From an uncultured Planctomycetota bacterium (GTDB taxonomy: Bacteria > Planctomycetota > Planctomycetia > Isosphaerales > Isosphaeraceae), in assembly GCA_963823665.1 (NCBI GenBank), contig CAWGMQ010000008.1, positions 1,312,001 through 1,376,000 of the forward strand: a stretch of 64,000 bases of DNA. The letters are read 5' to 3'. Position numbers and translations under genes: made by a program. This document shows positions 7,785 to 46,480 of this stretch, piece after piece. The stretch's first letter is position 1. The number at the start of each line of letters is the position of its first letter. The notes below the pieces were generated by a model. That model saw only the letters and a program-made list of their open reading frames with translations. It ran no database searches and was not told the origin of the DNA.

Positions 7785-7813
7785 TTGACAGCAAGGATGC
7801 GTGGCTTTAGTGT
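7785..7813 (+). promoter_or_regulatory. Sigma70-type promoter of tRNA-Thr
   Basis: Perfect TTGACA at 7785-7790, a 17-bp spacer, and TAGTGT at 7808-7813, 33 bp upstream of the tRNA. Confidence 0.75.
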
Positions 7814-7846
7814 AAATGCGGCGGATCCGGAGCACGCGCGCAGTGT

Positions 7847-7919
7847 GCCACCTTAGCTCAGTTGGTAGAGCACAGCTTTCGTAAAGCTGGGGTCCTGGGT
7901 TCGAGTCCCAGAGGTGGCT
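7847..7919 (+). tRNA. tRNA-Thr(CGT)
   Basis: Full cloverleaf: acceptor GCCACCT/AGGTGGC, D arm GCTC/GAGC, anticodon arm CAGCT-TTCGTAA-AGCTG, T arm CTGGG-TTCGAGT-CCCAG. CCA is not encoded. Confidence 0.97.
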
Positions 7920-7970
7920 TCTGTCTTCCTTGAGGAGAGCACCTTGATCAGTGGCCGATTCTTGCAGTCG

Positions 7971-9410
7971 ATGTTGGCAACCTGGTCGCGGGGGGTTCGG
8001 CGTGGAGTGACGACGGGGGCCCAGCGGCGCCGGCGTCGGCCCGGCGTCGAGCGGATGGAGTGGCGGGCGCTGCTCTCGACCATCACCCAGATCCCCGTCC
8101 CGACCCCCGATGCCCAACCCGAATCGATTGTGGTCGGTCCCGACGGCAATCTCTGGTTCACCGAAACTTCAAGCCCGTCGGCCGACAGCCCGTATGGCGA
8201 CAAGATCGGCATGATCAACCCCACGACCCACGCCGTCACGGAATTCACCGTGCCGACGCAGGGCGGCGAACCTTTCGGGATCACGGCGGGGCCCGATGGC
8301 AACATCTGGTTCACCGAGGAACGGGGCGACAAGATCGGCATGATCAACCCCGCGACCGATGCCATCTCGGAATTCGCCGTGCCGACGCCCAACGCACTGC
8401 CCGCCCGGATCGCGGTCGGCCCGGACGGCAACCTCTGGTTCACCGAGATGGGGGCGAAACAGATCGGGATGATCAACCCCGCGACTGACGCCATCAGCGA
8501 GTTCTCCGTCCCGTTCGAGCCGTTCGCGATCACAGCCGGCCCCGACGGCAACCTCTGGTTCACCGACGCCGGCTACGTGCAAACGGTCGGTCCCGACGGC
8601 ATGCTCATGATGACCCCTGACCAGGGCAATCTGATCGGGATGTTCAACCCCACGACCCACGCCGTCTCGGAGTTCGCCGTACCGACGCTGGACCCCCTGT
8701 TCGGGGCGATCACGACGGGCCCCGACGGCAACCTCTGGTTCACCGAGGCGGATGGGAACAAGATCGGCTCGATCAACCCCACGACCTATGACATCGTCGA
8801 AACGGAGCTGCCGACGCCAAACTCCGTGCCCATCGACATCACGACGGGCCCCGACGGCAACCTCTGGTTCACCGAGCAGGGCATCGGCCAGATCGGGACG
8901 ATCAACCCCGTGACGCGGAGCATCACCGAGACCGACATCCCTGGTTTCATCGTCCGCGGGATCACGACGGGCCCTGACGGGAATCTCTGGTTCACCGAGG
9001 CGTCCGCCGACGAGATCGGCGTCCTGACGCCGCCGCCCAGCCTTCCCTCGCTCGTCACCGAGAAGGCGATCGTCGCCGGCAAGGGGCCAAACCGGCACAT
9101 CGTCGGCTTCGAACTCGACTACAGCGGGGCGGTGGACCCGACCCAGGGAGTAAGCGCCGCCAGCTACACGGTGACGCAATTCCGGCGTCATGGACGACAG
9201 CTCGTCGCCCAGCCGGTTCGCTTCCGGGCGACGTATGACGCCACGGCCCACAGCGTGACGCTGACCCTGTCCGGACGGCCGAAGTTCGCGCAGGGTGGCC
9301 GGCTGGAAGTGACGGCCGGTCCGCCGGGAGCGACCACCGACGCCACGAGCGCGACGAGCGACGACCGGACCTTCGCCATCACGCCGAGATGGTCCGTCGT
9401 CGTACGATAA
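7971..9410 (+). CDS. Exported Vgb-like (virginiamycin B lyase fold) 7-bladed beta-propeller with basic C-terminal Ig-like domain
   Basis: N-terminal RRRRRPGVERMEWRALLS export motif and seven GPDGN(L/I)WFT repeats. The C-terminal domain is shared with the giant protein at 36824-43634. Confidence 0.85.
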   Translation: MLATWSRGVRRGVTTGAQRRRRRPGVERMEWRALLSTITQIPVPTPDAQPESIVVGPDGNLWFTETSSPSADSPYGDKIGMINPTTHAVTEFTVPTQGGEPFGITAGPDGNIWFTEERGDKIGMINPATDAISEFAVPTPNALPARIAVGPDGNLWFTEMGAKQIGMINPATDAISEFSVPFEPFAITAGPDGNLWFTDAGYVQTVGPDGMLMMTPDQGNLIGMFNPTTHAVSEFAVPTLDPLFGAITTGPDGNLWFTEADGNKIGSINPTTYDIVETELPTPNSVPIDITTGPDGNLWFTEQGIGQIGTINPVTRSITETDIPGFIVRGITTGPDGNLWFTEASADEIGVLTPPPSLPSLVTEKAIVAGKGPNRHIVGFELDYSGAVDPTQGVSAASYTVTQFRRHGRQLVAQPVRFRATYDATAHSVTLTLSGRPKFAQGGRLEVTAGPPGATTDATSATSDDRTFAITPRWSVVVR

Positions 9411-9433
9411 ACCTAAGACATTGGCGCACAACA

Positions 9434-9497
9434 GCGGAAAATGCTCGGACAGCTTTCGTAAAGCTGGGGTCCTGGGTTCGAGTCTCAGAGGTGGCTT
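9434..9497 (+). repeat. attR-like duplicate of tRNA-Thr 3' part, copy 2
   Basis: 9449-9497 matches 7872-7920 at 48/49 positions and is preceded by the non-tRNA motif GCGGAAAATGCT (9434-9445). Confidence 0.92.
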
Positions 9498-9504
9498 GAT
9501 CTGG

Positions 9505-9995
9505 TCAAGGGTGTCGACGTTCTCGCGGGAAGAGGAGCGACAACTGGACCCAACCCGTGATGCCGGCGTCTCTGCCGTCCATCACCTCGACCTTGGCCTT
9601 ACCGGAGATCTTGTCTGCTTCGAGAAGCTTGACCGTCGTGCCTGCATCATACGCTCTGATTTTCTCTGCTTTGGCTAGACGGGTGACACCTGCGCAGCGC
9701 CCGGGCCTTTTTTCCCGCTTTCGATCTGAGCGTCGACCATCTCGTCCCACGCGGATTCGTCGAGACAGATCCAGACGACAGACTCGCGGCGCCCGCCGGG
9801 GTAACCGAGGTTCGCAAGATCGCCGTCTCGGAGCTCGCGTCGAGCCTGATCTGGGAGGTCTGGTCGCGCGAGAACGTCTGCTGCCGGACGGGGGCCCGAC
9901 GGAGATCGGAGGAGCATCAGCCCAGCGCCGGCACAAACCAAGATCAATAACACGGCCGAAAAATCGCCACGACATCCGGAACGCGGTTCACTCAT
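9505..9995 (-). CDS. Small membrane-anchored hypothetical protein with SH3-like C-terminus; one frameshift near 9680
   Basis: MSEPRSG...AVLLILVCAGAGLMLL TM segment (ORF 9675-10166 frame) continues plausibly into LAKAEKIRAYDAGTTVKLLE...KVEVMDG...GWVQ (ORF 9505-9975 frame). Confidence 0.55.
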
Positions 9996-10220
9996 TGGCT
10001 CTCTCCGCGCACACGACCAGGCCGCAACCCGAATCGCTCCGTGTTGCCAGACGAAATCCAGTTTTATCCTCTCGAGAGATTTGCCGCCATGCATGCCGAT
10101 GCTGAGCGGATCGATCGGGCCGTGGGGGGGGAGATGCTCGGTCTCTCGCGGCGTGAGCGACTTCATCCGTCGATCACGCGCGATCGCGGGGGTGCGCGCG
10201 ACAACTGACTTGCCGACAGT

Positions 10221-10607
10221 TCAGCGAAACATCGACAGGAACAACACCAGCGTTCCCCCGACGCCGATCGAGGCGAGCGGCAGCAAAGCCAGCGCAAGAA
10301 CGGCGGTGCCCGCTCCGGCGTCACGTTGGCGGAACTTGCCGATCACGTGCTTGATCCCGAGTATTGTGGCCAGAAGCGCGGGATTGATGACCAGAAAGAA
10401 CCCGACCTCCGTTCCGAGCTCCTGCGGCGGGGTCAGGCGTGGACCGCTCCAGTTCACCAAAGTCGGACCTGCCTCCGGCACCCGCGGCTTCCAGCGCTCG
10501 ACAACGAGTGATGCACAATCGATGGCGACGGCCGCGGCGATTGTCCAAGCCGCGGTTTGCCACGGCCACCGCGCGAGCCCACGGGGCTTGTTCGGCAGGT
10601 CAGTCAT
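10221..10607 (-). CDS. Small hypothetical membrane protein (about 3 TM)
   Basis: MTDLPNKPRG start followed by three hydrophobic segments. Confidence 0.55.
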   Translation of the reverse strand: MTDLPNKPRGLARWPWQTAAWTIAAAVAIDCASLVVERWKPRVPEAGPTLVNWSGPRLTPPQELGTEVGFFLVINPALLATILGIKHVIGKFRQRDAGAGTAVLALALLPLASIGVGGTLVLFLSMFR

Positions 10608-10684
10608 CGGTTTTGAGGCGACGTGCAAGCTCGAGACTGCGATCAATGCTGAGTGAGCTCTCTCCGAGCAATTAACTGTTCATT

Positions 10685-11185
10685 TCACGACAGCGTGGTC
10701 GAGGTCTTCAGTTGTGGAACGGGGCGCGTGCTTCCCGGCGTGCGCGGCAGGCATTCCGGCTCCGCATCAAACCAGTAGGCAAGGGCAGTCCCGCAAACCA
10801 GGGCAAAGGCCACGATGATGAGGCAGACGCGTTCGGTCAATTGACATTCTTCGAGAACCCCTCGTACACGCGATGACTTCCTTGCGATCAAAGGTGCTGC
10901 TTCTTGTTCGCTTTTGAGCAGTTCCGCCCGATGCGTTCGATCGATGTTGAAGTTCTCGATTGCGTGCGCTGAACCCATCTGGCCGTCAGCATTCGGGGAA
11001 TTCTCTGGCTCTTGATGTTCACCAAATTCGCCCGCCAAGTTTAGCAGCGCACTCGAGCCTTTCGGCGCAGGTTGCGAGCTACTCGGGTGGCGCTGATGTG
11101 TTGTCACTGCTCGATTCCCCTCAAGCAAGTCTGGACATCGTTGGCCCCGGAAAACGTTGGCCGACTCGACGCATCGATCATGCAA
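10685..11185 (-). CDS. Hypothetical protein with a single C-terminal TM helix (start uncertain)
   Basis: 166-aa ORF containing VCLIIVAFALVCGTALAYWF; no recognisable family. Confidence 0.3.
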   Translation of the reverse strand: MHDRCVESANVFRGQRCPDLLEGNRAVTTHQRHPSSSQPAPKGSSALLNLAGEFGEHQEPENSPNADGQMGSAHAIENFNIDRTHRAELLKSEQEAAPLIARKSSRVRGVLEECQLTERVCLIIVAFALVCGTALAYWFDAEPECLPRTPGSTRPVPQLKTSTTLS

Positions 11186-11722
11186 AACCGAACCGGGCGC
11201 AACACGCTCATGAACTTTCAGAACATGAAAGCGTTATCGCCTGAACTGGTTGAGGCGGCCGGCTAATCCGCACTCAAACGTAGCTCAGGAATTCTGAACG
11301 GAAGTCTGCCCGCTCATCCCTGAGACCGAGTGGGCGCCGTCATCGTCGTGGACGGTTTGGGCGCGTCCGAGCTCCGGCATCAGGACCAGGTTCAGAACCA
11401 GCGGCGGCTTGACCGGAGCGCTCCAACCTGCTGGAATTCTGTTTCCGGTGACGCGGCATCTGACCAAATCGTTCGATTTCAGCGGTCATCTGGGAAACGT
11501 CGGGTAAGTGGATTGAGGATGGAGCCCCGATTGTGGGGGCGGCCGTCAACGCACTCGCTGTCTTATGCGTCCGCCGAATCTGGATCGGCCTGGTCCTCGT
11601 GGCTGGGTACTTTATCGCGGTTGTGCAGGTGATAGGGCCGTCCTATGAAACATGGGTTCACGGCCACTGACGAGGCCGCGGAGCCAGTGCCGCGTGCCAT
11701 CCAACCGGCAACTTCGGCGGAC

Positions 11723-11775
11723 GGCACACGGAGTGTGCCTGCTACACCGGACCACTGGCAATGCCGGTGCCACCC
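11723..11775 (-). repeat. Two tandem REP-like palindromes
   Basis: On the minus strand: GTAG-CA-GGCACAC-TCC-GTGTGCC (11723-11745) and GTGG-CACCGGCA-T-TGCCAGTG (11753-11773). Each is a tetranucleotide plus a hairpin. Confidence 0.65.
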
Positions 11776-12006
11776 ACCGCAGTCACATGATCCTGTAATG
11801 CTATTAGAGACGTATGTTGAGTCCAGCGAGTCGCTGGCTTGATCGCCTCGATCCGATGCAATTCGATGATGATGTAGCCCGCGGGATACCCCCAGATGCT
11901 AGAGACCTCGGCAGGCGGAGGATTACCCTTGGTGCTCTTCGTACCGGGTTCATCCTCTAACCGCAAGTCTTTGTCTGTAAGCACTCTTGAACGGTCGTGG
12001 ACGATG

Positions 12007-12070
12007 GCGGAAAATGCTTGAGAAGCTCTCGTAAAGCTTGTGTTCTGGGTTCGAGTCGCGCAGGCGGCTT
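12007..12070 (+). repeat. Degenerate attR-like duplicate of tRNA-Thr 3' part, copy 3
   Basis: 12024-12070 matches 7874-7920 at 39/47 positions. It has the same GCGGAAAATGCT motif (12007-12018) at the same 5-nt spacing as copy 2. Confidence 0.85.
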
Positions 12071-12126
12071 TCAGGCGGGACGAGTCACGTACGAGTGGGT
12101 TTCCTTCCGTCGAGAAGAAGAGCACC

Positions 12127-14616
12127 ATGCGGCGGGCATTCCGATTTCGGAAGGGCGTGCGGATTCCGGTTCAGTCAATCGGAGTGGGATTGGTTCTTGC
12201 GCTGGGGTTGGCGGCCGCGCGCACGGCCGGTGACGACGGGGGCGCCGCCGCGACGGATGCCAGAGAGCTTGCGGTGGGCACGGCGGTTGTGCCGGTTGAC
12301 GATCACGTGATGATTCACCGCGCGATGGTGCGCATGACGCCCGCGGTCGAATCCGAAGTAACAGATCCGGTGTTCCTCATTGCTGCGCGTAATTTGAGGA
12401 CGAGGACACAGCTACGACAGGTTCCTCTGCCGGGGCTCGAGACTCAGAAATTCGACGTTAACGCGGACGAGATTCTTCTGTTCCACATCTCGCGCGTGCG
12501 CCCAAAGCACGTCGAGGTGACCTCGCAAGACAAGAAGACGCGCGGTTGGCTTCGACTAGACCAGGTCATTCCGGTCAGGGAGGCTTTGGCGCGAGCCAGC
12601 CGTGCGATTGAAAACGATCCGGGCGATATCACCGCACTCGTCCGAAGGGCAAGGCTGCGTTGCGCGGAGCAGCAGTGCGAGAGCGCGCTGGCTGATCTGG
12701 ACGCGGCGATCCGGCGTGATCCCAAGAGTGCGGCGGCGTTCAAGGCGCGCTCGGATCTCTCCATTTCCATCGGTGATTTTGACGCCGCGATGGAGGACTT
12801 CGACCGGTATGTGAATTTACAATCCGCGAATGTAACGTTCTTCATCAGCCGAGCCCGACGATGGCTGGACAAGGACGAGAGTGGGCGTGGGGTTGTGGAC
12901 CTGGAGCGCGCACAAGGTATCGATCCCAATCATCCGGGGATTCCGCTGGTCTGGTTTGAGTACTGGTCGCTCAAAGGCGAGTCGGAGCGTGCGCTCGCGG
13001 AGCTTGATGCGGCGATTCGCCGCGATCCGGCGGCACTCAGTGCGTACGAACTGCGGGCGGAAGCCCTCGCAGCAAGCGGCGAGCTGGACAAGGCGGTCGC
13101 CGACTGGGACCAGGCGATCAAGCTCGAACCCGACGATCCCGAACTCTTTCGCGCTCGAGCGGCCCAGTGGATGGCGCTCGAAGACCCAGACAAGGCGATC
13201 GCCGATTATTCACGCGCGATCGCTCTTGATCCGGATGTGGTTGAGCCTTATCTCCGGCGTGCGGATGCGTGGTCAGCGAAGAATCGGCACGACAAGGCGA
13301 TCGCCGACGATTCCGCAGCGATCAAGCTCGACGCCAAGTGTCGCGAAGCATTCCTGAGCAGGGGCAAGGTGCGGCAGGCTAAAGGTGATCTCGACGGCGC
13401 CATCGCCGACTTCACCGAAGTGATTCGTTTGAGCCCCAAGCCCGCGCAGAGGCTCTCGCCGTTTGAGGCCGCCAGCTATGCCGATAGCTATCAGGCACTT
13501 CAATGCCGGGGCGATCTCCTGCTGCAGAGGAAGGAACCCGCGCGGGCGATTGCGGATTACGACCGTCTGATCGAGGCCAATCCAGCGGATTGCGAGGCGC
13601 TGTACAGGCGCAGATGCGCGAAGTTCGACCTGAAACAGCTCGATGAGGCGATGGCCGATCTGGACAGCGCGATCGAGCAAGGGCCGACACGAGACGATAT
13701 CTACTATACGCGCGGGTGCCTCTGGTTCGAGAAGAAGAACTACGACAAGGCGATCGCCGATTTTACCGAGGCGATCGTTCTCGACCCGGACGATGAACAA
13801 TTGTCCTGGCGATACGGGAACCGTGGGAGGTGTCTCCGCGCGAAGCACGAATTCGACGGCGCGATTGCCGACTTGACGCAAGCCATCAAGCTCGAGCCGC
13901 AGGACCCAGCGCTTTATGTGGAACGCGGGCGCGCCTGGACCGAGAAGACGGACTTTTCGCGAGCGATCGCGGATTTATCCGTGGCCGTGCGACTCGCTCC
14001 GAAAGCCGCAAACTACCGGATTACGAGAGGGATCTTATTCCGCCGGAACAAGGATTTTGCCAGGGCGCTTGACGACCTCAACGAGGCGATCCGACTCGAG
14101 CCACGGAGTCCGGGCCATTACGTGGAACGCAGCAATATTTGGCTCGACAAGAAAGAGTTCGCGCGAGCGATCGAGGATTTGTCGGCGGCGATCAAGCTGG
14201 CGCCTGATTTCGCGATGCTTTACGGGGCGCGGGGCAACGCGTTGCGCCGCAACAGGGATCATGCCCGGGCACTCGAGGACTTTGGCACGGCGGTTCGACT
14301 CGATAGCAAAACCTGGGGTTGGTATAGCCACAGTGCCTGGATTCGTGCGACTTGCCCAGACCCGGCTCTCCGGGACGGCAAGTCAGCGGTAGGCCTGGCA
14401 ACCCGAGGCTGCGAGCTCGTCGAGTGGAAGGCAGCTTTCGCGCTCGAAAGCCTCGCTGCTGCCTGCGCCGAAGCAGGCGACTTCAAGACCGCGGTTGAGT
14501 GGCAGAAGAAAGCGATCAAACTATCGCCGTCGGATGATCCGATGCGGGCGAAGAAGCTTGATCGCCTGGCGCAATTCGAGAAGAAGCAGCCTTACCGTGA
14601 GCAGGCCGATGATTGA
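12127..14616 (+). CDS. Exported tetratricopeptide-repeat protein
   Basis: Signal-like N-terminus, many AIAD(F/Y/L)xxAIxLxP TPR repeats, and a C-terminal AWIRATCPD...RDGKSAV...ATRGCEL...LAAACAEAGDF cap. Confidence 0.9.
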   Translation: MRRAFRFRKGVRIPVQSIGVGLVLALGLAAARTAGDDGGAAATDARELAVGTAVVPVDDHVMIHRAMVRMTPAVESEVTDPVFLIAARNLRTRTQLRQVPLPGLETQKFDVNADEILLFHISRVRPKHVEVTSQDKKTRGWLRLDQVIPVREALARASRAIENDPGDITALVRRARLRCAEQQCESALADLDAAIRRDPKSAAAFKARSDLSISIGDFDAAMEDFDRYVNLQSANVTFFISRARRWLDKDESGRGVVDLERAQGIDPNHPGIPLVWFEYWSLKGESERALAELDAAIRRDPAALSAYELRAEALAASGELDKAVADWDQAIKLEPDDPELFRARAAQWMALEDPDKAIADYSRAIALDPDVVEPYLRRADAWSAKNRHDKAIADDSAAIKLDAKCREAFLSRGKVRQAKGDLDGAIADFTEVIRLSPKPAQRLSPFEAASYADSYQALQCRGDLLLQRKEPARAIADYDRLIEANPADCEALYRRRCAKFDLKQLDEAMADLDSAIEQGPTRDDIYYTRGCLWFEKKNYDKAIADFTEAIVLDPDDEQLSWRYGNRGRCLRAKHEFDGAIADLTQAIKLEPQDPALYVERGRAWTEKTDFSRAIADLSVAVRLAPKAANYRITRGILFRRNKDFARALDDLNEAIRLEPRSPGHYVERSNIWLDKKEFARAIEDLSAAIKLAPDFAMLYGARGNALRRNRDHARALEDFGTAVRLDSKTWGWYSHSAWIRATCPDPALRDGKSAVGLATRGCELVEWKAAFALESLAAACAEAGDFKTAVEWQKKAIKLSPSDDPMRAKKLDRLAQFEKKQPYREQADD

Positions 14617-14721
14617 GAGGTTACCGCGCCTGGTGGCGACGGTGCTTGCTTCTGGGATAATACGGACCGGGGTGCGGCGATCTGCGATTGCAGAGCGCGG
14701 CGACCCCGGGAGAACGGTGCG

Positions 14722-17700
14722 ATGAACTCGGGCATCGAAGAAGATCTGCTGTTCGGGCTGATGGCGATTCAGAACGGGATGATCGATCAGGAACAGATGT
14801 TCGCCGCTTATGAGGATTGGAACCTCGATAAGTCGGTTACGCTGGCCGATCACATTGCTGCTCGCGGCGAACTCGAGTCAGGCGACCGCGCTCTGATCGA
14901 GGGGCTCGTCGAGCGGCACTTGAAGCGGCATGACGGCGACGCCGAGCAGAGCATGGCGGCCTTGATCGTCGGCCGAGCGAATCTCGAGCAACTGGCGCAG
15001 TACGAGGAATTCTCGGTCGGCACGACGCTGTCGTATTTCGCGTCGGGGTCGCGGAGCGGCGCGGACGGCAAGAGCGGAGGAGGCTTGCGACCCATCGTTC
15101 GCCCTGGCGTGCCGCCCGGGCAGCGATTTCAAGTGCTTCGACCCTATGCGAAGGGGGGACTGGGGTCGGTCTCGGTTGCGCTCGACACCGAGGTGCATCG
15201 CGAGGTGGCGCTCAAACAGATTCTCGAGAAGCACGCAGATGACCCGCTCAGCCGGCAGCGATTCCTGCTCGAGGCCGAGATCACGGGCGGACTGGAACAT
15301 CCGGGGATCGTGCCGGTGTACGGTCTGGGGGCGGACGCCCGGGGCCGGCCGTTTTACGCGATGCGGTTCATCCAGGGGGAGACTCTCAAAGAGACTGCCG
15401 AGCAGTTCCACCAGGACCGATCACTGAGCTGCGACGCGGGCCGCCGCTCGCTCGAGCTGCGGAAGCTGCTGCGGCGGTTCATCGACGTTTGCAATGCCGT
15501 CGATTATGCGCACGGCCGGGGCGTGCTGCACCGCGACATCAAGCCGGGCAACGTGATCCTGGGTAAACACGGGGAGACTCTGCTGGTCGACTGGGGGCTG
15601 GCCAAAGCGATGGGGCGTTCCGACCCGGCGGAGGGCGAGGGCACGCTGACACTGAGCGCTGCGAGCGGGGCTACTGAGACCTTGCCGGGCCGGGCGATGG
15701 GAACACCGGCCTTCATGAGCGCGGAGCAAGCCGCGGGGGACATCAAGCGGCTGGGGCCGCAGAGCGATGTTTACAGTCTGGGCGCGACGCTTTACTACAT
15801 TCTCGCGGGACGGCCACCGCTTGCAGGCAGTGTGGCCGATATTCTGCGCCGGACGCGAGAGGGGGATTTCCCGCCGCCGCGGCTGATCCAGCCGTCGGTT
15901 GAAAAGGCGCTCGAGGCCGTGTGCTTGAAGGCGATGGCTCTTCTACCGGAAGACCGGTACGCGACGGCGAGGGCGCTGGCGGATGACATCGAGCGCTGGC
16001 AAGCGGACGAGCCGGTCTCCGCGTGGCGTGAACCGCTCTGGGTGCGGTTGCGGCGGCGGGCGCGGAAGCACCGCGTGGCGGTGGCTGTTGCGGCGGCGCT
16101 CTTGATGGCAACGACGATAGGGCTGGGTGTGAGCACGGCGCTCATCGCGCGAGAGCGGAACGAGGCGGAGGCGCAGGGCGAGCAGGCGCGGCAGGCGATC
16201 CAACTCTTGACGGGGGCAGCGGATCTTGCGTTCGACGAACGGCTGGATCCGTTTCAGGTGGAATTCCTCAAGCAGGCACTTGGGTATTATCAAGGGTTCA
16301 CGGCGCGGGTCGCGGCGAATCCGAAGGTGCGAGTGGAGCACGGCCGCGCGTATCAGCAAATGGGAGACATCCAGCGCAAGCTTTACAAGGGAATCTCCGC
16401 AGCGGAGGGCTCATACCAGAAAGCGCTTCAGTTGCTCGAGCCGCTGGCGAGGGACGCCGGCCTGGGGAGGGCCGCACGTCAGTCGCTGGCCCGCACGGAG
16501 TGTCTGCTGGCCGACCTGCTGGTGCGCCAAGGCGACGCTGAGAAGAAGGCAGCAGCGCTTTATCACGAGTCGCTCGAAACGCAGCGAGCGCTGGTGAAAG
16601 AGGCGGGCGCTTCGACCGTCGACTGGCTGCGGCTGGGGCAGACGCTCAAGAGCCAGGCCGATCTGCTGTGGCTGAACGGGCAGCTCAAGCCTGCCAACCT
16701 CGACTACGACGAAGCAATCGCCGTCCTTGAAATGGTGCCCGCGAGCGACGAAAAGCGGAATGAAGCTCAAACCGCGCTGGCGCTGGCGATCGACTCGCGG
16801 GGCTGGATTCAGTTCGAGCAAGGCGACCTCGCCGGGGCGGAGAAAGATTACCGCCGCGCCCTGGAGTTGTTAGCCGGCCTGGTCAAGAAATTCCCCACGA
16901 TTCCACGTCACCGGGAGGCGCTTGCACGAGCCTGTAACAGCCTGGGGGTGATCGAAACGAGCACCGGGCGGCCGACCGAAGCCGAGGGGCACTTCCGGCG
17001 CGAGCTGCCGCTGGTCGAGCGATTGTCGGAGGATTTCCAGGACCAGGGCGAGTATCAGCGTCTGCTGGCCCGCACGCTGATGAATCTGGAAAAGGTGTTG
17101 TCGGAGCAGAACCGCGGCAGGGAAGCCGAGCCGTTCATTCGCCGCGCGATTGAGGTGAATTCACCAGTGGCAGACGGCTCGCCGGACGACGTTCAGATTC
17201 ACGTCGACCTGGCGCTGCAACACAACAACCTGGGTATGCTCTTGCGAGCGCGGGGGGCGAGCAGGCAGGCGATCGACTCGTTCCAGGAGGCGAGAGCGAT
17301 CAGCGAGAAGCTGATGGGCAAGTTTCCGGGGCAACCGCGATTTCGCGAGCATCTCGCGGGCGTGCTCACCAATCTGGCGGAGGCGCTTGCGAGTGTGGGC
17401 GATCCCGAGGGGAAGGATGTCTACAAGATCCTCATTCCGCTCTACGAGAATCTGGTGGCCGAGTATCCGGACAACATCAACTACAAGATCGGCCAGGCGA
17501 GCTGCCTTCGGAACTACGGGCCGCTCGTGGCCGCCCTTGGGCGGCCGCAGGAGGCGGAATCACTGTATCGAAAGGCGCTCGAGCTGCTGGAGACAAGGCC
17601 CGGGCAGATTCCGTCGACCGATCAGTTGCGTGTGCAGGCCGACGTGCTGAACAACCTGGGCGACTTGCAGCAAGGGAGCAACCGACCGCTGGCTGAAGCG

Positions 17701-24177: not shown

Positions 24178-27100
24178 ATGATCGACGCGATCATCACCTT
24201 TTCGATCCGGCACCGAGCTCTCGTGATCGGCGCGGGGCTTGTGCTTGCGCTGCTGGGAGCATTGGCGGCGCGGGAGACTCCGGTCGACGCGATTCCGGAC
24301 CTCTCGGAGAACCAGGTGATCGTCTTCACCGCGTGGAAGGGACACGGGCCGCGCGAGATTGAAGACCAGGTGACCTACCCATTGTCGCTGGGCCTCTCGG
24401 GACTGCGCGGGTGCGGGTGGTGCGGTCGTCGAGCGACGTCGGGTATTCGATGATCAGCGTGATCTTCGAGGACGGCATCAGCTCGGCGGAAGGGCGGCGG
24501 CGGGTTGGCGATCGGCTGGCGCGTGTGCAGGCGGAACTACCCGAAGACGCGCGTCCGGAGCTGGGACCGGACGCGCCTGCGACCGGTCAGATTTTCTGGT
24601 ACACGGTCGAGGGAGGGGGTCTGGACCTGGGCCGTCTGAGGGCGATCCAGGATTGGTATGTTCGCCCGCAGATTGCGTCGGTGCCGGGAGTGGCCGAGGT
24701 AGCGAGTGTGGGAGGGTTTCCGATCGAGTACCAGATCGCGCCCGACTTGAACCGGCTCGGGCTTTACGGGCTGACGACGCGGGACGTTGTCGAGGCCCTT
24801 TCGCGATCGAACGCCGCAGCCGCGGGGCACGTGATCCACAAGGGAAATGCCGAGTACGTGGTGCGAGGCGTTGGCTGGGTGGGAGCATCGAGCGAGCCTG
24901 GCGACGAATCATTCGACTCGAGCCGGGCGCTCGCGGACCTGGAAAACGTGGCGGTGGTGCGACCGGCCGGGGGCACGGTCCGGCTGGGCGACGTTGCGGA
25001 GATCGGGCTGGGGCCGGGGTTCCGGCGAGGCGTGCTGGAGAAGGACGGCAATGAAGTGACCGGGGGAGTGGTGCTCCTGGCCAACGGCGAGAATCCGCTT
25101 GAAGTCACGGGGCGGATCAAGGCCAAGATCCGGGAGCTCCAGACCGGCCTGCCTCGCGGCGTGCGGATCGTACCGTTCTATGATCGGACGCCGCTCATCG
25201 AAGGGGCGATCGGCACGGTCACCCGTACCGTCATCGAGGCGATTGTCTCGGCATCGCTCTGTGTGCTCCTGATCCTGTTGCACGTGCGTACGTCGCTGGT
25301 CATCGCCAGCACTATTCCGCTGGCTGCGCTCTCATCGTTTCTGATCATGGCGGTGCTGCGGAGACTCTCGATCGTGGACGTTCAGGCCAATGCGACGTCA
25401 CTCGCGGGTATCGCCATTTCGATCGGCGTACTGGTCGATTCCTCGGTGGTGATGGCCGAGAACGTGATGCACCGCCTGCGGGAGCAATTCGGGAACCGGG
25501 TGGTGCGTGGAGACGTGAGCGCCATCGTGCTGCAGGCCTGCCTGGCGGTGGGACGACCGATCGTGTTCTCGGTGGCGATCATGGTGCTCTCGTTCCTGCC
25601 CGTGTTTGCCCTGGGCGGGATCGAGGGAAAGATGTTTCACCCCATGGCCTACACCAAGACGTTTGCCCTGGGCGCTGTGGCGATCCTGGCGATCACGCTG
25701 GTGCCGGCCTTGTGCACGATCTTCATCCGGGGGAAGCTGCGCTCCGAGACGGATAATCCACTGATTCGCGGCGTGATCGAGGTGTATCGCCCGGTGCTTT
25801 CGTATCTGATTGACCAACCGGCGGCGCTGGCGTGGGTGCTGGGAGTGACGTTTCTGCTGGGGTTCATTCCTCTGGGCAGCCGGCCCCTGACGGTGGCGAT
25901 CCTCGTGGTGGCGATGGTGGCGACGGCGTTACTGGTCAGGGCGTGGGTCTGGGCGGTGGTTCTTCCGATGAGCCTGCTCACGGTGGCGCTCATCGCGGAC
26001 CAGTCGATGAAGCCGCTCGAGCGCGAGTTCATGGCGCCGCTCGATGAAGGGATGGTGATGGACATGCCGATCACGGTGCCGCGAGCCTCGGTGACGGAGT
26101 CGCTTGACGATTTGAAGGCGCGGGACATGGTGCTCTGCCGGTTTCCCGAAGTCGACATGGTGGTCGGCAAGGCCGGGCGGGCCGAGACGCCGACCGACCC
26201 GGCGCCCCTGGACATGATCGAGACCATGGTGAATTTCCGACCGCGAGAGCTCTGGCCACGGCGGAAGCTTGGCGTCGCCGACGCGCTCTCGCAAGGCCAT
26301 GCGGTCTACGACGCGCTCGTCACCCGCGGCGTGCTCGGTCCGCCGACAACGTCCGCGGCCGAGGACGAGCTGATCGAGCAGTCGGTATCAGCCGCGGTTG
26401 TGCTGTTCGACGCGGCGAGCCGCGAGTACGCCTACCATCGATATCAGGAGATGCTGCGTGAAACGGGGGGGGTTTCCCCGAGCTCGAGTGCATCCGTCGT
26501 CACCCGAGGAAGCGCGGGTAGTCGCGCCGTGGCAGCATCACGTGGAGCTGGTCGACGACGAGTTGATCACGCGGGCCGCGCCGCTCTTTACGCGGCTGGT
26601 GATGGAGCAGCTTCTCGACCACGGGCGAATCACCGACTCCGGAGTCGTGCTTCATCACAAAGAGGCGGCCCTAGTGCGCGCGGCAGGAATTGCGGCCGCT
26701 ACTCGCCACATGCAATCGCCGGGCGCAGGTGGCCATCATCATGGCGGGGAAGCGCCGTCTGCATCGCGGCCGATCCTCGAACCCCACCCGGTGCTGGACG
26801 CGGTTCAAGATACATTGTCGAAGCGATTCAGCCGGCGGCTGATGCTCTGGAAGGCCGATCGAACATCGCTGGCGGCCTTTGGCGGAGAGCTCGACTCGGC
26901 TGTTTCGATGCCGGGATGGACGAACGTCTGGACGATGCCGATCCAGAATCGCGTCGACATGCTTGCAACAGGTGTGAACACGCCGATCGGCATCCGCGTG
27001 CTGGGCCGAAACCTTGACGACGTGATCCGTGGCTCGGAAGAAGTCGCGCGTCTCGTCAAGCCGTTGCGAGGGGCGGCCGACGTGGTCGCCGACCCGATTC

Positions 27101-28173
27101 GAGGCAAGCCGTATATCGAAATCCGGATCGACCGCGCTCGCGCCGCTGCACTCGGTGTGAGCGTGGGCGAGATCAACGATGTGATCGAAACAGCACTGGC
27201 CGGCAAGGTGGTTGGAACCACGGTCGAGGGACGCGAACGGCATCCGATCGTCGTTCGATGCGGACGTCGCTGGCGTGAAGACGAGGAATCGATTCGCAAT
27301 CTGCCTGTGACGGCTCGAGGGCCGCTCGAATGAGCCGGGTGACCGAGCCCAGAGGGCTTCGATCTCCAAGGAGGTGCCACTGGGCGAGGTGGCGAAGGTA
27401 GAGGTGGTTCCTGGACCCGCGACCATCAAAAGCGAGAATGGACTCTTGAGGAATTACGTGCGGATGAACGTGAGCGGACGCGACGCTGCCGACTTGGTCG
27501 CGGAAGCGCGCCAGGTGGTGGCGCGAGAGGCCAAGAGGGCAAACTACCCGCCGGTGTTTTCATCGAGTTCACCGGACAGTTCGAACACACGGTCCGTGCG
27601 CGACGCACACTGCTCGTGGTCGTGCCGATCGTGGTTGCGCTGATTTTCCTCATCCTGTACTTCACGTACCACGACCTGGCCGACGCGGTGCTGATGATGC
27701 TGGCTGTGCCGGGCGCGATTGCCGGGGGGCTGTTCTTTCAGTGGCTACTGGGACTCAAGCTTTCGGTCACCGTGTGGGTGGGCTACATCGCGTGTTTTGG
27801 AATGGCCACGTCAACCGGAATTATCATGCTCGTGTATTTGCGTGAAGCGATCGCAAAGGCGGGGGGGCTGGACCGGATGAGCCTGCGCGAGCTGCGAGCG
27901 GCGGTGCTCGCCGGCGCGGTGCAGCGGCTGCGGCCCAAGCTGCTGACCGAGGGAACAGTCGTGCTGGGGCTGGCACCCTTGCTCTGGGCCAGCGGCGTTG
28001 CCTCCGAGATCATCCGTCCGATGGCGGCGCCGGTTCTGGGCGGTATTCTGGTGGCTGACGAGGTGATCGACCTGTTTCTACCGGTGCTCTTTTACTGGGT
28101 GCGCCGCCGGCGATGGCAGCGGCTGCACGCAGGGACGATCGTCGTGGAGACCGAAGTCGAGGTTGTCGCGTGA
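24178..28173 (+). CDS. cusA: CusA/CzcA-family heavy-metal RND permease, split by 4 frameshifts (about 24408, 26470-26500, 27330-27370, 27535)
   Basis: DAIPDLSENQVIVFT, EDQVTYPL, LGPDAPATGQIFWY, FYDRT, GIAISIGVLVD, PIQNRVDMLATG, IKSENG, VGYIACFG and RLRPKLLT, spread over five consecutive ORFs. Confidence 0.88.
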
Positions 28174-35021: not shown

Positions 35022-36149
35022 CTATCCCAGTCGCTTCAGCAGTTCGCGGACCCGCCCGACCAGGTGAGCTCGCGGTGCGTCTTCATTGACCCACGCTGCG
35101 CGGTCGGAGAGTTCTGCCAGTCGCTCGCGCAGCCGCGCGATGGCGGCCAGGCCGAGCGATCGGTGGTCTTGCATCTCGAGTGCGATTGCGTCAAGCCGGC
35201 GCGCGATCTCCTCGGCATCAACGCGATCGGGGAGGGACGAGAGCGGATGGGCGTCGGCTTCGCCGGCGTGGGGCTCGATCACGCCGGCAACCAGCGACCG
35301 AAGCGGCGCGATCTGCTCTTCGCGGTCCCACACGTAGCGGAACACCCAGAAATCCGAGACCCGTGCCGTCTTCCGCCCACACAACACGGCCGACGCCGCC
35401 ACGAGCTTGAGGATCTTCACGACCCGGCGGTCGGAAAGAGCGACGCCAAGGTCGCGCACCTTCGAGACCACTGCGGCGTAGCGATCGGAGATCTCTCGAA
35501 CGTCAACCTCGTAAATCCGCCGCGAAAGTGAGCGCAGATCTTCGGCGGAAATCGACGACTCGATCGCACTGCACCGCTCGAGCTCCCAGCCGGCCGAAAG
35601 CAGGCGCGGTAGTTCCTCAGGCTTCAGGTTCTCGACGTGGCTGCGCAGCAAGAACCGATCGAATAAGGCTCGCAGGGACTCATCTTCGGGCAGGTGATTC
35701 GAAGCCGCGAAGAGCGACAGGAGCGGCAGCCGGTGCACCTCGGCTCCGCGGCGGTAGATCCGTTCGTTGAGCACCGTCAGCAGGTTGTTCAGGATGGCGC
35801 TGTTGGCGTTGAAGAGCTCGTCCAGAAAGATGAATTCTGCCTCGGGAAGCATACCGTTTGTCACGGTAGCCACAGTCCCCTCGCGCAGCCGCACGAGGTC
35901 GATCGGCCCGAAGACTTCGTTGGGCTCGGAAAACCGCGTCAGCAGATACTCGAAGTACGTGCCGCGCACCGCGCTGGCGAACTGCCTGATGAGGGCAGAC
36001 TTGGCCGTTCCCGGCGGCCCGTGCAGCATCAGGTGTTCGCCCGCGGTCACCGCAAGTGCGATCAGGTCGACGATTTCATCGCGGTCGACAAAGCGCCGCT
36101 TGAGCGGCTCGACGACCTCGCGGCGCAGGCGGTCGACGGTGTCATTCAA
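35022..36149 (-). CDS. MoxR/RavA-family AAA+ ATPase
   Basis: GPPGTAKS, YLLTRFSEPNEVFGP, FLDELFNANSAILN, ASNHLP, ALFDRF and SDRR. The TTG start at 36149 overlaps the upstream stop. Confidence 0.9.
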   Translation of the reverse strand: MNDTVDRLRREVVEPLKRRFVDRDEIVDLIALAVTAGEHLMLHGPPGTAKSALIRQFASAVRGTYFEYLLTRFSEPNEVFGPIDLVRLREGTVATVTNGMLPEAEFIFLDELFNANSAILNNLLTVLNERIYRRGAEVHRLPLLSLFAASNHLPEDESLRALFDRFLLRSHVENLKPEELPRLLSAGWELERCSAIESSISAEDLRSLSRRIYEVDVREISDRYAAVVSKVRDLGVALSDRRVVKILKLVAASAVLCGRKTARVSDFWVFRYVWDREEQIAPLRSLVAGVIEPHAGEADAHPLSSLPDRVDAEEIARRLDAIALEMQDHRSLGLAAIARLRERLAELSDRAAWVNEDAPRAHLVGRVRELLKRLG

Positions 36150-36798
36150 CGTGAGCCCCTTTTCCTGCGCTCGAAGAGAACTCGGCGGGACTGGATTGCC
36201 CACGACGACGTTCGTCGCTCGCGAGCTCATAATAGGCACAGCCCGGCGCCCGCTGCGCGGGCCGCCACGCGTGGCGGTCGTTGGCCACAAGCCGTTCGGA
36301 GTACAAGAGCAACAGACCCGGGTGGCCCGCAAATTCGAGAGAGCCCAAAGGCGGCTCAATCACGTCCGAGAGCACCCCCGACAGCGGCCATCGTCGCAGC
36401 ACGTCTTCCAGCAGACCGATCAGCGGGTCGGACGGATCAAGCCCCCGAGCTCGTTTCAAGACCTGCGGCAGATAACGCAGCATCAAATCGGCCGAGAGGT
36501 GATGAGCCGGAGTCGCCGGCTGAATCGGCATCGAGAGGAGCTTCTTCAGTTGCGAGATCCGATCGTTGTGGTTCAGAAGTGCCCAGCTCGCCTGCCGCAG
36601 GACTTCGGCCGCGGAGTAGCCCACCGCCCCATCGAAGGGAATCGCCGGCCCCGCCACCGAAAGCTGGACGACTTCGAATCCCTTTTCCAGAAGGGCAATA
36701 TCCTCGGCAAGAGGCCGGTCTCGCGGGGCCTGAGCCGAGCGAAACACAACCTTCCCTTCTCGGAGCAGCTCAATCACGAATCGGCGAAACGAGGTCAT
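36142..36798 (-). CDS. bpX4-like protein of MoxR-vWA-beta-propeller ternary conflict systems
   Basis: LSVAGPAIPFD...AAEVL...AHHLSADLMLRYLP...RARGLDPSDPL...RRWPLSGV...HPGLLLLYSER, translationally coupled to the MoxR gene. Confidence 0.7.
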   Translation of the reverse strand: MTSFRRFVIELLREGKVVFRSAQAPRDRPLAEDIALLEKGFEVVQLSVAGPAIPFDGAVGYSAAEVLRQASWALLNHNDRISQLKKLLSMPIQPATPAHHLSADLMLRYLPQVLKRARGLDPSDPLIGLLEDVLRRWPLSGVLSDVIEPPLGSLEFAGHPGLLLLYSERLVANDRHAWRPAQRAPGCAYYELASDERRRGQSSPAEFSSSAGKGAHVE

Positions 36799-36823: not shown

Positions 36824-39800
36824 TTATCCAACTACGTTTCGCGCTTTGGGAAGCACGGTGAATACCGCGTTGCCACCGGGTATTCCGTCACCGTTGCCAT
36901 CGAGGGCGGTGCCGGAGGTGTCTAAAATCCCCCCCGGCCCAGCATTCACCACAATCTGGCCCCCGAGCGTAAACGCCGGCTTGCCGGCGAGCGAGAGGCT
37001 TACACTGTTCGACGAGGAATTGTACAAGGCCTGGGCACGCACCGGCTTCGCTTTGCTCTTGCGCCCGTGCTTCACGGTTTGGGTCACTGTGTAATTCGCG
37101 GCATTTTCCGCGGCGGCCGGGTCGAGCGCGGCGGTGAAGAAGAGCTGGAAACCGGCAAAGTGCTTGTGCTTACCCTTGCCAGTCGTAAGAATTTGCACGC
37201 GGCTGATGGAGGGAGGAGGCGTGACGGTGAACGCGCTTGAAACGGCCGCGCTCAAACCATCGCCGCTGATCGTGAGTCCGTATCCACCGGCCTTGTTGAG
37301 GGTCAGCCCCGTCAGCGTCGCAACCCCGTCGACAAACGGCGCCCCAGTCGCCCCGCCGAGCGCTCCCCCGATCCGCTTGCGATCGAGACCCGTCACGGAC
37401 CCTGTTTCCGAAGTGACCGTGTTGCCGAAACGATCCTCGGCTGTTACAGCCAGAGAAAACCCGCCCTCCGGTGCAACGTTCGCCGGCGGTTGGCTCGTCA
37501 CAACGAGCTGGTCGGCCGCCGCGGGCGTCACGTTGATTCCGTTCGTAATGGCCGCCGCAAGGCCCTCGCTACTCGCCCGGAGCGTGTCGCCGGCAGTGGC
37601 CTTGTCCAGGTTCAGGCCTGTGAACGAAGCCACGCCGTCGACCGCCGACACTGCGAGCGTCCCATTCAAGGTGTCTCCGTGCGGGTTGCTCGCCAGTGCG
37701 ACGACCACGCTTCCCGCGAACGCCGGCACGACGTTCCCGAAGGCGTCCTCGGCTGTCACCATAAACCCGAATCCGGCGCCGGCCGTGACGGACGACGGCG
37801 GCGGATCGCTCACGACAAGCGCGGCCAGCGCAGCGGGATCGATCGTGACTGGCGTCGCGGTCGTTGCCGCCAGGCTGCCGGTCGCGAACGTGAGCGAGAT
37901 GGTCTCCGCCTTGTCGTCCGCCAGATTCCTGAACGTCGCCGACCCGCCGGAGACTGTGGCCGTGGTTGTCCCCTCGAGCGGGCCGGCGCCGCTGGAAAGC
38001 GACGCGGTCACGATCGTGCTGTCGTCGCTTGTCTCGAGATTGCCGTATTGATCCTCTTCTTCGACCACGGGCTGACTTGCAAACGCCTGTCCGGCTGTCG
38101 CCGCGCTCGAGGGTTGCGTCTCCATGACCAACTGGTAGGGCGTTGCCGCGCTCACGGCGATCCCGCCCGACGTGGCGATTTGCAGGTTGCCGCTCTTGAA
38201 CGCGAGCGTGATGGTCTCTGCCTTGTCGTCGGCCAGGTTCGAGAAGACCGCCACGCCTCCGGATACGCTGGCGAAGACTGTCCCCCGCAGTGGCCCGACA
38301 CCGCTCTGGAGCGACGCAGTGACCACGGTGGTGTTATCGCTCGTCTCCAGGTTGCCGTATTGATCCTCTTCCTCGACGACCGGCTGAGTGGCGAAGGCCC
38401 GGCCGGCCGTCGCCGTCGATGAGACCTGAGTATGGATCACCAACTGGCTGGCCGGTGCCGGCGCGACGACGGTCGCGGCAGACACCGCCGGCAAAAGCTC
38501 ACCGCTCGAGAATAGCAGGCTGAGGCTCCCTGCTGTCTCGTCACTCAAGTCGGTGAACGCGGCCACCCCGCGCGAGACGGCGACCTGGCTCGTGCCTGCT
38601 AGCGAGCCCGCGCCACTATTCAAGGACACCGTCACGGGCGTGCTATTGTCGCCAGTCTCCACGTTGCCGTATTGATCCTCTTCCTCGATCACCGGCTGGG
38701 TCGCGAATTCAACACCGGCCGTGGCGGTCGAGGACTGCGGCGTGCGAATCACCAACTGGGTCGCCGCCGCCGGCGAAACAACGATCAGCCCGGAGTTGGC
38801 TGCAAGGAGCATGCCGCTCTCAAACGCCAGCGCAATCGAGCCGGCCAAGTCTTCGGCCAGGTTCGAGAAGACCGCAAGGCCGCCGGCGACCGTCGCAGCA
38901 GTCGTCCCCTCAAGCGGCCCGGCACCGCTAGAGAGCGACGCGGTCACGACCGTGCTGTTGTCGCTCGTCTCGAGGTTTCCGTATTGATCCTCCTCTTCGA
39001 TGACCGGCTGAGTGGCAAAGGCCTGTCCGGCCGTCGCCGCCCCAGAGGGTTTTGTCTGGATCACCAGCAGGCTGGGATTCGCCGGGCTTACCGTGATGTC
39101 GCTCGATGTCGCCACTTGCAGGGCGCCGCTTTCGAAAACAAGCGAGAAACTCTCCGCCCTGTCATCAGCCAAGTCTGCAAAACTCGCGACACCGCCCGAG
39201 ACGCTTACGGACGTCATGCCCTCGAGCGGCCCTGTCCCGCTGGCGAGCGCCGCGGTCACAACCGTGTTGTTATCACTCATCTCGATGTTGCCGTACCGGT
39301 CTTCTTCCTCGATGAACGGCTGAGTCGAGAACGCCTGCCCGGCCGTCGCCGCCCCGGAGGGTTGCGTCTGGATGACCAACTGGAAGGGCGCCGCGGCACG
39401 GACAGTAATCCCGCTCGAAGTGGCCGCCTTCAGGCTGCCGCTCTGGAAGACGAGCGCATTGCTCTCGGCCTTGTTATCCGCCAGACCTGCAAACCGCGCC
39501 ACGCCGTCCGAGACGGTGACGGTCGTCGTTCCCTCTAGCGGCCCTGGCCCGCTTGCCAGCGCCGCGGTCACCTCGGTGGTGTTGTCGCTCGCCTCGATGT
39601 TTCCGTACTGGTCCTCCTCTGCGATGACCGGCTCACTTGAGAATGGCTGCCCGGCCGTCGCGGTCGATGAGGGTTGCGTCTGGATGACCAACTGGAAGGG
39701 CGCCGCCGCGCTGACGGTCGTCTCGCTCGAAATCGCCGGTTTCAAGCTGCCGCTCTTGAAGATGAGCGTGATCGTCTCCGCTTTGTTGTCTGCCAGACCC

Positions 39801-42800: not shown

Positions 42801-43634
42801 GAGCGTTTCCTCGAGCTCCCAGCTACCGGTCGGGTCCGTTGCCGGCACGGCACCTTCGCCGCTGTCGCCCAACTCGCTCGTGATGTCGGTTCCGTACTCG
42901 TTGAACACGGTCAAGATCGACGACGCCGGCCCGTATGCTTGATACAGCGTCGGGCTCGTGTTCGTTGTCATGTTCATCGATTCGTCAAAGCCGTCCAGGT
43001 CCGTGATGATGTTTGGATCGTTGTACGCATCGACGATGCCGATCGTTTGCCCGGTGCCATCGGGTGTTTCGGCCTCGAAGTCGGGAATGCTGTCGATGCC
43101 GTAGGCCGCGCGAATCTGGGAGACCGAGTACGTCAGGTAACTCACCGCCGGTAACGCCGCCGTGAAGTTGAAGCTGATCGTGTTGTCGGCATAACTCGTC
43201 TCCGGCACGGACTGGTCCGGATCGACCGTGACCGTCACCTGGTTTTCACCGGGGGTCGCGATGAAGTAGCCACGGTAATAATACCAACCGACCGTCCCCG
43301 AGTTGCCGGCACCATAAGCAAGGTAACCGGAGTCAAGGGTCGTGCCGTTGACCGTATAGGCAACGCGAAAGGACGCATCACTCGGTAAGTTCTGGGTCGT
43401 GAAATCGACCCGGATGTCGACATCCTCGCCGGCGCTCACAGTGGAAAGGGGATTGTCACTCGTGTCAACCACAAGCGCATTCGTGACCGCGATGTTGCCG
43501 GTGAGCGCGATTCGCGCCTCCAGGAACTCCGGAATGAGCCCAGCGCCAAAGCGCCTGCACCGGCGGGGACGCCGTCGGGATGATTTAAAGCCACGTTGCC
43601 TCAGGGCGCGGAGACGAAGCGCAAACAAATTCAT
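36824..43634 (-). CDS. Giant exported S53 (sedolisin-like) protease with CARDB-like, golvesin-like and about 14 Ig-like repeats (about 2270 aa); frameshift near 42630
   Basis: N-terminal RRRPRR...EFLEARIALT; EETLDVEWAHAIAP, ASSGDGG, GTSLSSP and GYDELTGLGSP. Removing one base in agcgcgcgagatg joins ORFs 42615-43634 and 36824-42625. Confidence 0.88.
37850..41280 (-). repeat. 11 tandem 312-bp (104-aa) Ig-like repeats, flanked by 3 divergent units
   Basis: The EED(Q/R)(Y/F)GN motif recurs every 312 bp (e.g. at 41165 and 40853). Confidence 0.92.
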
Positions 43635-43874
43635 GCGACTTCTCAGGCAAAAGCCGTCGGTTGTCTTTCTGCACGGATCTCAAATCCCAGACCCGCAGAG
43701 CGCCGCAGACGGAAACGCGGAAGCACCATCACCCACCGCAATCGACCGTCTCATCCTCCTCGCGAGGTAGAGACTCATCAATCGAATCGCACTTTGGATT
43801 TTCATCCTACTCTCAGGGTGACTCGTACTCCTACTCCCAAGTCCATAAAAACCATCGATCGCACTCACAACACC

Positions 43875-46478: not shown

Positions 46479-46480
46479 GG

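Follow-up and report, generated by a model that had tools for sequence, protein, structure and literature searches.

The 64-kb stretch of DNA analysed here (hereafter the window) comes from the 16.46-Mb genome of an uncultured planctomycete of the family Isosphaeraceae (G000) and contains a tRNA-Thr(CGT) gene followed by two displaced copies of its own 3′ part, which mark off two small, integrase-free gene blocks (modules 1 and 2). The locus most likely holds two decayed islands in tandem, relics at a tRNA hot spot that represent an ordinary, known kind of genome scar. More specifically, the two copies are probably attachment-site (att) scars of the attR type left by two related tyrosine-integrase elements, which inserted in tandem and then lost their integrases and most of their genes by deletion. 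A preliminary description of the window had proposed either deleted island relics or integron-like cassettes mobilised in trans. Comparison with the 120 other genomes of a 121-genome set representing the family favours the former.

A tRNA gene and two displaced copies of its 3′ part

The tRNA-Thr(CGT) gene is the single tRNA found in the window by ARAGORN and Rfam, and the sole Rfam match between positions 7000 and 13000. That its 3′ part recurs twice downstream, as noticed in the preliminary description, was confirmed by alignment and BLAST (Table 1), and a repeat search grouped the three copies into one 64-nt family with the spacings already reported, 1577 and 2573 bp. The segment common to the tRNA and both downstream copies begins at ~7872, and all three are in direct orientation. 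Identity with the tRNA begins at positions 26–28 of the gene, i.e. in the anticodon stem-loop, and the junction repeats are colinear with tRNA-Thr positions 26–74 rather than being attC-type palindromes. A local-alignment scan of the window revealed no further copy of the site, all other scores being at most 24 compared with 22–25 in shuffled controls. Between 7600 and 12300, promoter-like sites numbered zero and terminator-like sites matched the shuffled expectation.

Both copies are preceded by the same non-tRNA 12-mer, GCGGAAAATGCT, which ends 5 nt before a shared AGCT, exactly as first described. Four of five positions differ between the 5-nt spacers beside it while the 12-mer is fully conserved, and on its upstream side the similarity between the two arms is gone within ~10 nt. 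The 12-mer occurs five times in the G000 genome (reversed control, two). The other three occurrences lie within coding sequence, two of them in adjacent repeats of a tetratricopeptide repeat (TPR)-like gene, and no tRNA fragment was found near any of them, so that the genome-wide search suggested in the preliminary description did not lead to similar sites; nor was a second instance of the 12-mer arm joined to the tRNA-derived core (arm-plus-core site) found outside this locus in G000. The placement of GCGGAAAATGCT at the same offset in both arms points to homology rather than chance, and a P-arm motif common to both sites indicates that the same element family acted twice, as had been proposed for the recombinase. 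Copy 3 is 83% identical to the tRNA over 47 nt, compared with 98% for copy 2. Greater decay of the outer site is what insertion of each newcomer at the tRNA would be predicted to produce, and bears out the earlier statement that the most decayed site lies farthest from it.

Table 1. Features of the tRNA-Thr(CGT) locus and adjoining DNA, in window coordinates.
Feature	Position	Strand	Evidence or remarks
tRNA-Thr(CGT), intact; putative regenerated target (attL)	7847..7919	+	ARAGORN; Rfam tRNA 69.1 bits; alignment
Vgb-lyase-family beta-propeller gene with C-terminal domain; only gene of module 1	7944..9410	+	Pfam PF24684, 3.7e-75; G+C at third codon positions (GC3) 0.88
12-mer GCGGAAAATGCT; P-arm motif of putative inner attR, probably element-derived	9434..9445	+	
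tRNA-Thr 3′ fragment, copy 2; putative inner attR core	9449..9497	+	48/49 identical to tRNA
12-mer GCGGAAAATGCT; P-arm motif of putative outer attR	12007..12018	+	
tRNA-Thr 3′ fragment, copy 3; putative outer and older attR core; T-stem broken	12024..12070	+	39/47 identical
Module 2, mostly eroded block	9498..12006		GC 0.56–0.65; weak GC3; no Pfam/PHROG family
Small membrane-protein gene, 128 aa, probably intact	10221..10607	-	GC3 0.77; five metagenome homologues, 64–79% identity
Conserved ~115-nt element, orphan copy	11386..11507	+	only a 45-aa open reading frame (ORF) after it
Repetitive extragenic palindrome (REP)-like sequence GGCACACGGAGTGTGCC, one host-wide copy	11723..11739		182 genome copies; reversed control 0
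TPR-repeat gene just beyond the array	12127..14616	+	Pfam; not syntenic in same-genus G001

The same attachment site in related genomes

A pattern for the tRNA-Thr(CGT) 3′ part matched 110 of the 121 family genomes, with at least two matches in 27 (including G000), and two copies on one contig and strand were present in 14 genomes besides G000. Two of these, G041 (L161) and G042 (L162), are different species of one genus, and each has a complete tRNA-Thr(CGT) gene in duplicate, at a distance of 1643 bp; with both copies complete these were rejected as att pairs and attributed to gene duplication. The second 3′-part copy of the other 12 lies 2.9–87 kb away (G001, 31428 bp; G010, 87154; G021, 12258; G022, 24156; G126, 21259; G117, 35700; G128, 36467; G020, 17877; G136, 23201; G050, 3607; G064, 2903; G073, 4282). 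Ten distal copies were read directly (all except those of G117 and G136), and all ten are fragments that start at tRNA positions 27–32, in the anticodon stem-loop, with unrelated sequence before them.

Integrases of the tyrosine type (PF00589) stand at an att end in G001, G010, G021, G117 and G128, which supports the preliminary claim that the repeats in G000 are scars of tRNA-targeting integrases, as relatives bear integrase islands at exactly this att. The genes in G001, G010, G117 and G128 diverge from the distal fragment, the one in G021 adjoins the tRNA, and G008 has a truncated integrase beside a fragment. Those of G001, G117 and G128 are mutually 37–46% identical, and BLAST comparisons gave no match between the G010 or G021 integrases and the others. 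The arm of G008 (CATGGAAACATGCC...) was considered as a possible relative of the 12-mer arm, a weak likeness that failed the three-mismatch pattern search.

G001 is a member of the same genus as G000. The T-stem of its regenerated tRNA is of a type typical of other genera, whereas the G000 and G012 variant persists in the displaced fragment. Site-specific integration of a foreign element would be expected to leave just such a footprint, and the presence of a terminase large subunit marks the island as prophage-like. The displaced fragment together with the P arm (L057 4465–4536) is called by ARAGORN as a 72-nt tRNA-Thr(cgt), the arm of this element being tRNA-like enough to produce a pseudo-tRNA call. 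G000 and G001 share the upstream flank at 81–87% identity and are again syntenic downstream from ~14633. Between these flanks G001 has the 31-kb island and 8.6 kb of other DNA, and other family genomes have unrelated cargo at the site, so the variable content that the preliminary description had proposed to look for among relatives is indeed present. In a tblastx comparison of the two modules with the relatives' islands, the att cores were the sole matches.

Small blocks also occur at this att. The G050 block encodes a DDE transposase and a HIRAN-domain protein, the G064 block 187 aa of a truncated tail tape-measure protein, and the G073 block an ankyrin/globin protein and an extracytoplasmic function (ECF) sigma factor; neither an integrase nor an integrase remnant was found in any of the three, and their arms show no relation to the 12-mer. 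The cut-down phage gene of G064 shows directly that a few kilobases may be all that deletion leaves of an element at this att. In G022 (L060/L061) the att-bounded block encodes a 2223-aa polyketide synthase, a thioesterase, ATP-binding cassette (ABC)/HlyD/MacB transport proteins, a resolvase and a piece of IS66, and no tyrosine integrase was found from one att site to the other. Immediately ahead of the G022 fragment is a sequence resembling the T-arm of a different tRNA, on the opposite strand. This arm is shared by G126 (L166), a congener, in which the same ABC/HlyD genes adjoin the fragment, 21 kb from the tRNA. Taken together, tRNA-Thr(CGT) is a much-used, anticodon-centred att in the family.

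Integrases in the host genome and traces in metagenomes

The earlier statement that the window lacks an integrase stands: a whole-genome search of G000 for PF00589 gave 20 matches, none of them in the window, and Pfam comparison of 33 of the 35 long window ORFs identified no integrase, resolvase or transposase. Among the ORFs of the modules, no integrase, relaxase or other recombinase family was recognised by Pfam, PHROGs or tblastn. The tblastn matches that did fall in the modules were discarded as artefacts, arising from a stop-to-stop frame that overlaps the tRNA fragment. No integrase linked to the tRNA-Thr att was found in the G000 assembly, and the G000 proteins closest to the tRNA-Thr integrases of relatives share only 37% identity with them and are encoded beside tRNA-Pro(GGG) and tRNA-Met.

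Eight soil-metagenome runs were listed, with shares of at most 0.14, and no RNA data set was among those listed. Five soil-metagenome runs yielded exact contigs of 150–310 nt from both modules and their flanks; none of these contigs spans any of the three att junctions, and none has a module-skipping or circular joint.

Module 1

As previously described, module 1 is essentially one gene plus a site: it holds a single ORF that starts at ATG 7971 or at an in-frame TTG at 7944 and stops at 9408–9410, 23 nt upstream of the 12-mer. The gene belongs to a large family, with 61 paralogue matches in the G000 genome. The best matches elsewhere are 52–60% identical, in genomes titled Planctomycetota or Isosphaeraceae, and no relative above 60% identity was found. 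None of 80 loci with module 1 homologues, retrieved with peptide patterns that included PGVERMEW, has a tRNA fragment, and none of the 11 best homologue loci has a tRNA. The N-terminus of the protein (7944–8060) has an arginine run followed by PGVERMEWRALLS. Arginine-rich N-termini of the form LEDRxLLS are common in planctomycete proteins.

Origin of the array

We envisage a history in three steps. The attP of a first element would have included a tRNA copy that began at the anticodon stem and ran to the 3′ end. Crossover between this element and the tRNA gene, at or close to the anticodon loop, would have regenerated the tRNA and displaced its original 3′ part, which would survive as copy 3 with the 12-mer arm of the element just upstream. 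A second, related element would then have used the regenerated tRNA, pushing the first element outward and creating copy 2, which bears that arm motif too, and deletions would later have removed the integrases and most of the cargo. The repeats, the common arm motif, the absence of a detectable integrase or remnant, and the integrase-bearing islands and small relics of relatives at this att are direct observations, from which we infer that two integrations took place, in that order, and that deletion brought the modules to their present size. On its own the resulting array would be inert. Homologous recombination between the nearly identical tRNA and copy 2 repeats could rearrange or remove it, and by analogy with cis-mobilisable elements (CIMEs) it could move in cis upon the arrival of a compatible element.

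Several results weigh against this history. A tblastn search of 7800–14800 with 14 integrases, six from the relatives' tRNA-Thr islands and eight from G000 (cut-offs of E = 10 for twelve of them and E = 1 for the other two), recovered no integrase remnant, so deletion is deduced rather than seen. No parent element came to light: the arm-plus-core site, with up to three mismatches allowed, is present in one of the 121 family genomes, G000 itself, and exact scans of genome and viral contig collections gave no match. The same exact scan of metagenome collections gave two matches, which continue as non-tRNA sequence and were dismissed as chance. The P′ sides (after the tRNA and after copy 2) have no similarity. 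Finally, module 1 is tidy, with an intact gene, 24–51 nt before it, 23 nt after it and a nearly undecayed attR, a layout that random deletion would not often yield.

Tidiness of this kind is what would be expected if the modules were integrase-free mini-elements, each consisting of a gene block and a ~65-nt attP of 12-mer arm plus tRNA copy, inserted in trans by an integrase encoded elsewhere. The compactness of module 1, an intact gene and a site with hardly any DNA to spare, the near-identity of its attR to the tRNA, the failure of tblastn to find an integrase remnant and the small integrase-free blocks at the same att in three other genomes all agree with such an origin, and a conserved 12-mer beside a spacer changed at four of five positions is the pattern that a binding site would be predicted to leave. 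We nevertheless regard it as unlikely. The arm-plus-core site was found in one family genome only and had no true match in public collections, the module 1 gene has no relative above 60% identity and none of its 80 homologue loci has a tRNA fragment, and module 2 has no copy in the 120 other family genomes. In addition, the other small modules have arms that do not resemble the 12-mer, the block of G064 is what is left of a truncated prophage, and the nearest G000 homologues of the relatives' integrases are distant and sit at other tRNA genes. We give correspondingly little credence to the broader idea that the 12-mer is the recombinase-binding site of mini-elements and that very large planctomycete genomes run a tRNA-anchored cassette capture parallel to integrons. 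The integron-like array of trans-mobilised cassettes put forward in the preliminary description is therefore not supported, given a site restricted to G000, modules seen nowhere else and no linked integrase. The deleted island relics that it offered instead fit better, with the G064 block and its truncated phage gene as a comparable relic, but the integrase fragments that it associated with ordinary decayed islands were not found inside the modules.

Homologous recombination could also have shaped the locus, with DNA of a relative swapped in or added between the tRNA and att repeats as homology arms. In favour are near-perfect homology over as much as 49 nt between the repeats, conservation of the upstream flank with G001, the failure to find an integrase at the locus, and the double-crossover replacement of island content described for flexible islands (PMC7771536). 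As the main source of the present content, however, this process seems improbable, since it leaves the origin of the arm-plus-core sites unexplained and still needs integrase events, and nothing resembling a donor copy turned up for either module. That the copies are pseudo-tRNAs from tandem tRNA gene duplication, for which G041 and G042 provide a precedent, can be largely discounted, as both copies begin in the anticodon stem like the att fragments of relatives, both are preceded by the common non-tRNA 12-mer, and ARAGORN and Rfam detect no trace of a 5′ half.

Module 2 and adjoining DNA

Module 2 looks eroded and long resident, as suggested by its low GC, weak GC3, orphan leader and copy of the host REP-like sequence. 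Codon-position signal is mostly weak, no ORF matched a Pfam family above threshold (one weak sub-threshold match), and none of eight ORFs had a PHROG family. The 120 other family genomes contain no copy of module 2 beyond two short segments corresponding to the REP-like sequence and the leader, and its 128-aa protein has no relative in viral contigs.

The ~115-nt element is present at 74–86% identity in at least nine other family genomes (L172, L173 and L175–L180 among the loci). At the loci inspected it is placed 25–80 nt upstream of a same-strand gene, and the genes behind it, five of them Pfam-named (three 3-keto-disaccharide hydrolases, an esterase and a trypsin-like protease), are of secreted-hydrolase type. 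It has no Rfam match and a weak consensus fold (−12.3 kcal/mol, four covarying pairs), and is perhaps a 5′ leader or promoter module not described before. The orphan copy in module 2, with only a 45-aa ORF behind it, suggests that its own gene has decayed. The palindrome GGCACACGGAGTGTGCC is sometimes arranged in tandem in G000, e.g. at C6:557351–557610, has related copies in G001, and occurs on short contigs that reach high depth in soil metagenomes.

Elsewhere in the window, an AcrB-family transporter (24411–28173) is represented by two ORFs of 868 aa (profile 76–540) and 185 aa (profile 867–1020); the gene may be disrupted, or its middle part may have been missed in ORF picking. A MoxR-type AAA ATPase (35022–36359, minus strand) belongs to the ‘MoxR-vWA-beta-propeller ternary system’ family PF20030 (4.2e-91), and beside it are four large ORFs of 1933, 339, 652 and 585 aa (36824–48238, minus strand) without a Pfam family at 1e-5.

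Implications

The tRNA-Thr(CGT) gene emerges as an integration hot spot of one planctomycete family, used by at least three integrase groups (G001/G117/G128, G010 and G021), and the usual fate of such insertions appears to be decay to small att-bounded blocks, possibly keeping a useful gene. This is of use in annotating very large genomes and delimiting their flexible regions, and opens no new mechanism. If small blocks did move without an integrase of their own, the locus would bear on the spread of integrase-less cassettes.

Comparison with known systems

Like integrons and clusters of attC sites lacking integron integrases (CALIN), the array consists of short integrase-free gene units parted by a repeated recombination site. 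Unlike them, its repeat is a colinear tRNA 3′ fragment rather than an attC hairpin, intI and attI are absent, and there are only two units with no common cassette pool. Neither of the features that define an integron or CALIN, IntI or attC hairpins, was found, the former in line with the lack of PF00589 in the window.

Additive flexible genomic islands with direct repeats of tRNA parts, of which the array looks like a small example, are described for Alteromonas (PMC4898812) and ‘Ca. Actinomarinales’ (PMC7771536). In the sections of these studies that treat the islands, content varies among related genomes, as it does at the same site here, and near-identical cassettes recur across strains, species or genera, whereas the G000 modules were found nowhere else and gave no sign of a shared cassette pool.

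The Islander collection, according to the portion of its description that deals with tRNA targets (PMC4383910), comprises 2083 islands with an anticodon-centred attP and includes tandem islands. Its islands resemble the array in having an intact tRNA, a directly oriented displaced 3′ fragment with identity from the anticodon stem-loop, and tandem arrangement. The G000 locus has the tRNA and same-orientation cognate fragments on one replicon, and an anticodon-centred crossover. In the same portion of the description, an integrase is required for each island (PMC4383910), and neither G000 module contains a tyrosine integrase. The modules, at 1.6 and 2.6 kb, are also far smaller than the islands of relatives (12–87 kb).

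CIMEs and their accretion are reportedly covered by Pavlovic 2004 and Bellanger 2011, both cited within a review of the subject. Section 2.3 of that review (PMC5704250) describes tandem accretion as integration, decay and further integration. As set out there, CIMEs are defined for decayed streptococcal elements of the integrative and conjugative (ICE) or the integrative and mobilisable (IME) kind with known parents, and their mobilisation in cis has been demonstrated, whereas neither a parent element nor conjugation genes were found for the modules. Like the CIMEs of that section, the modules are bounded by attL and attR, appear to have lost integration and transfer genes and follow one another at a target gene's 3′ part, and each retains both of its att sites, with the tRNA or its fragment on one side and the arm plus fragment on the other.

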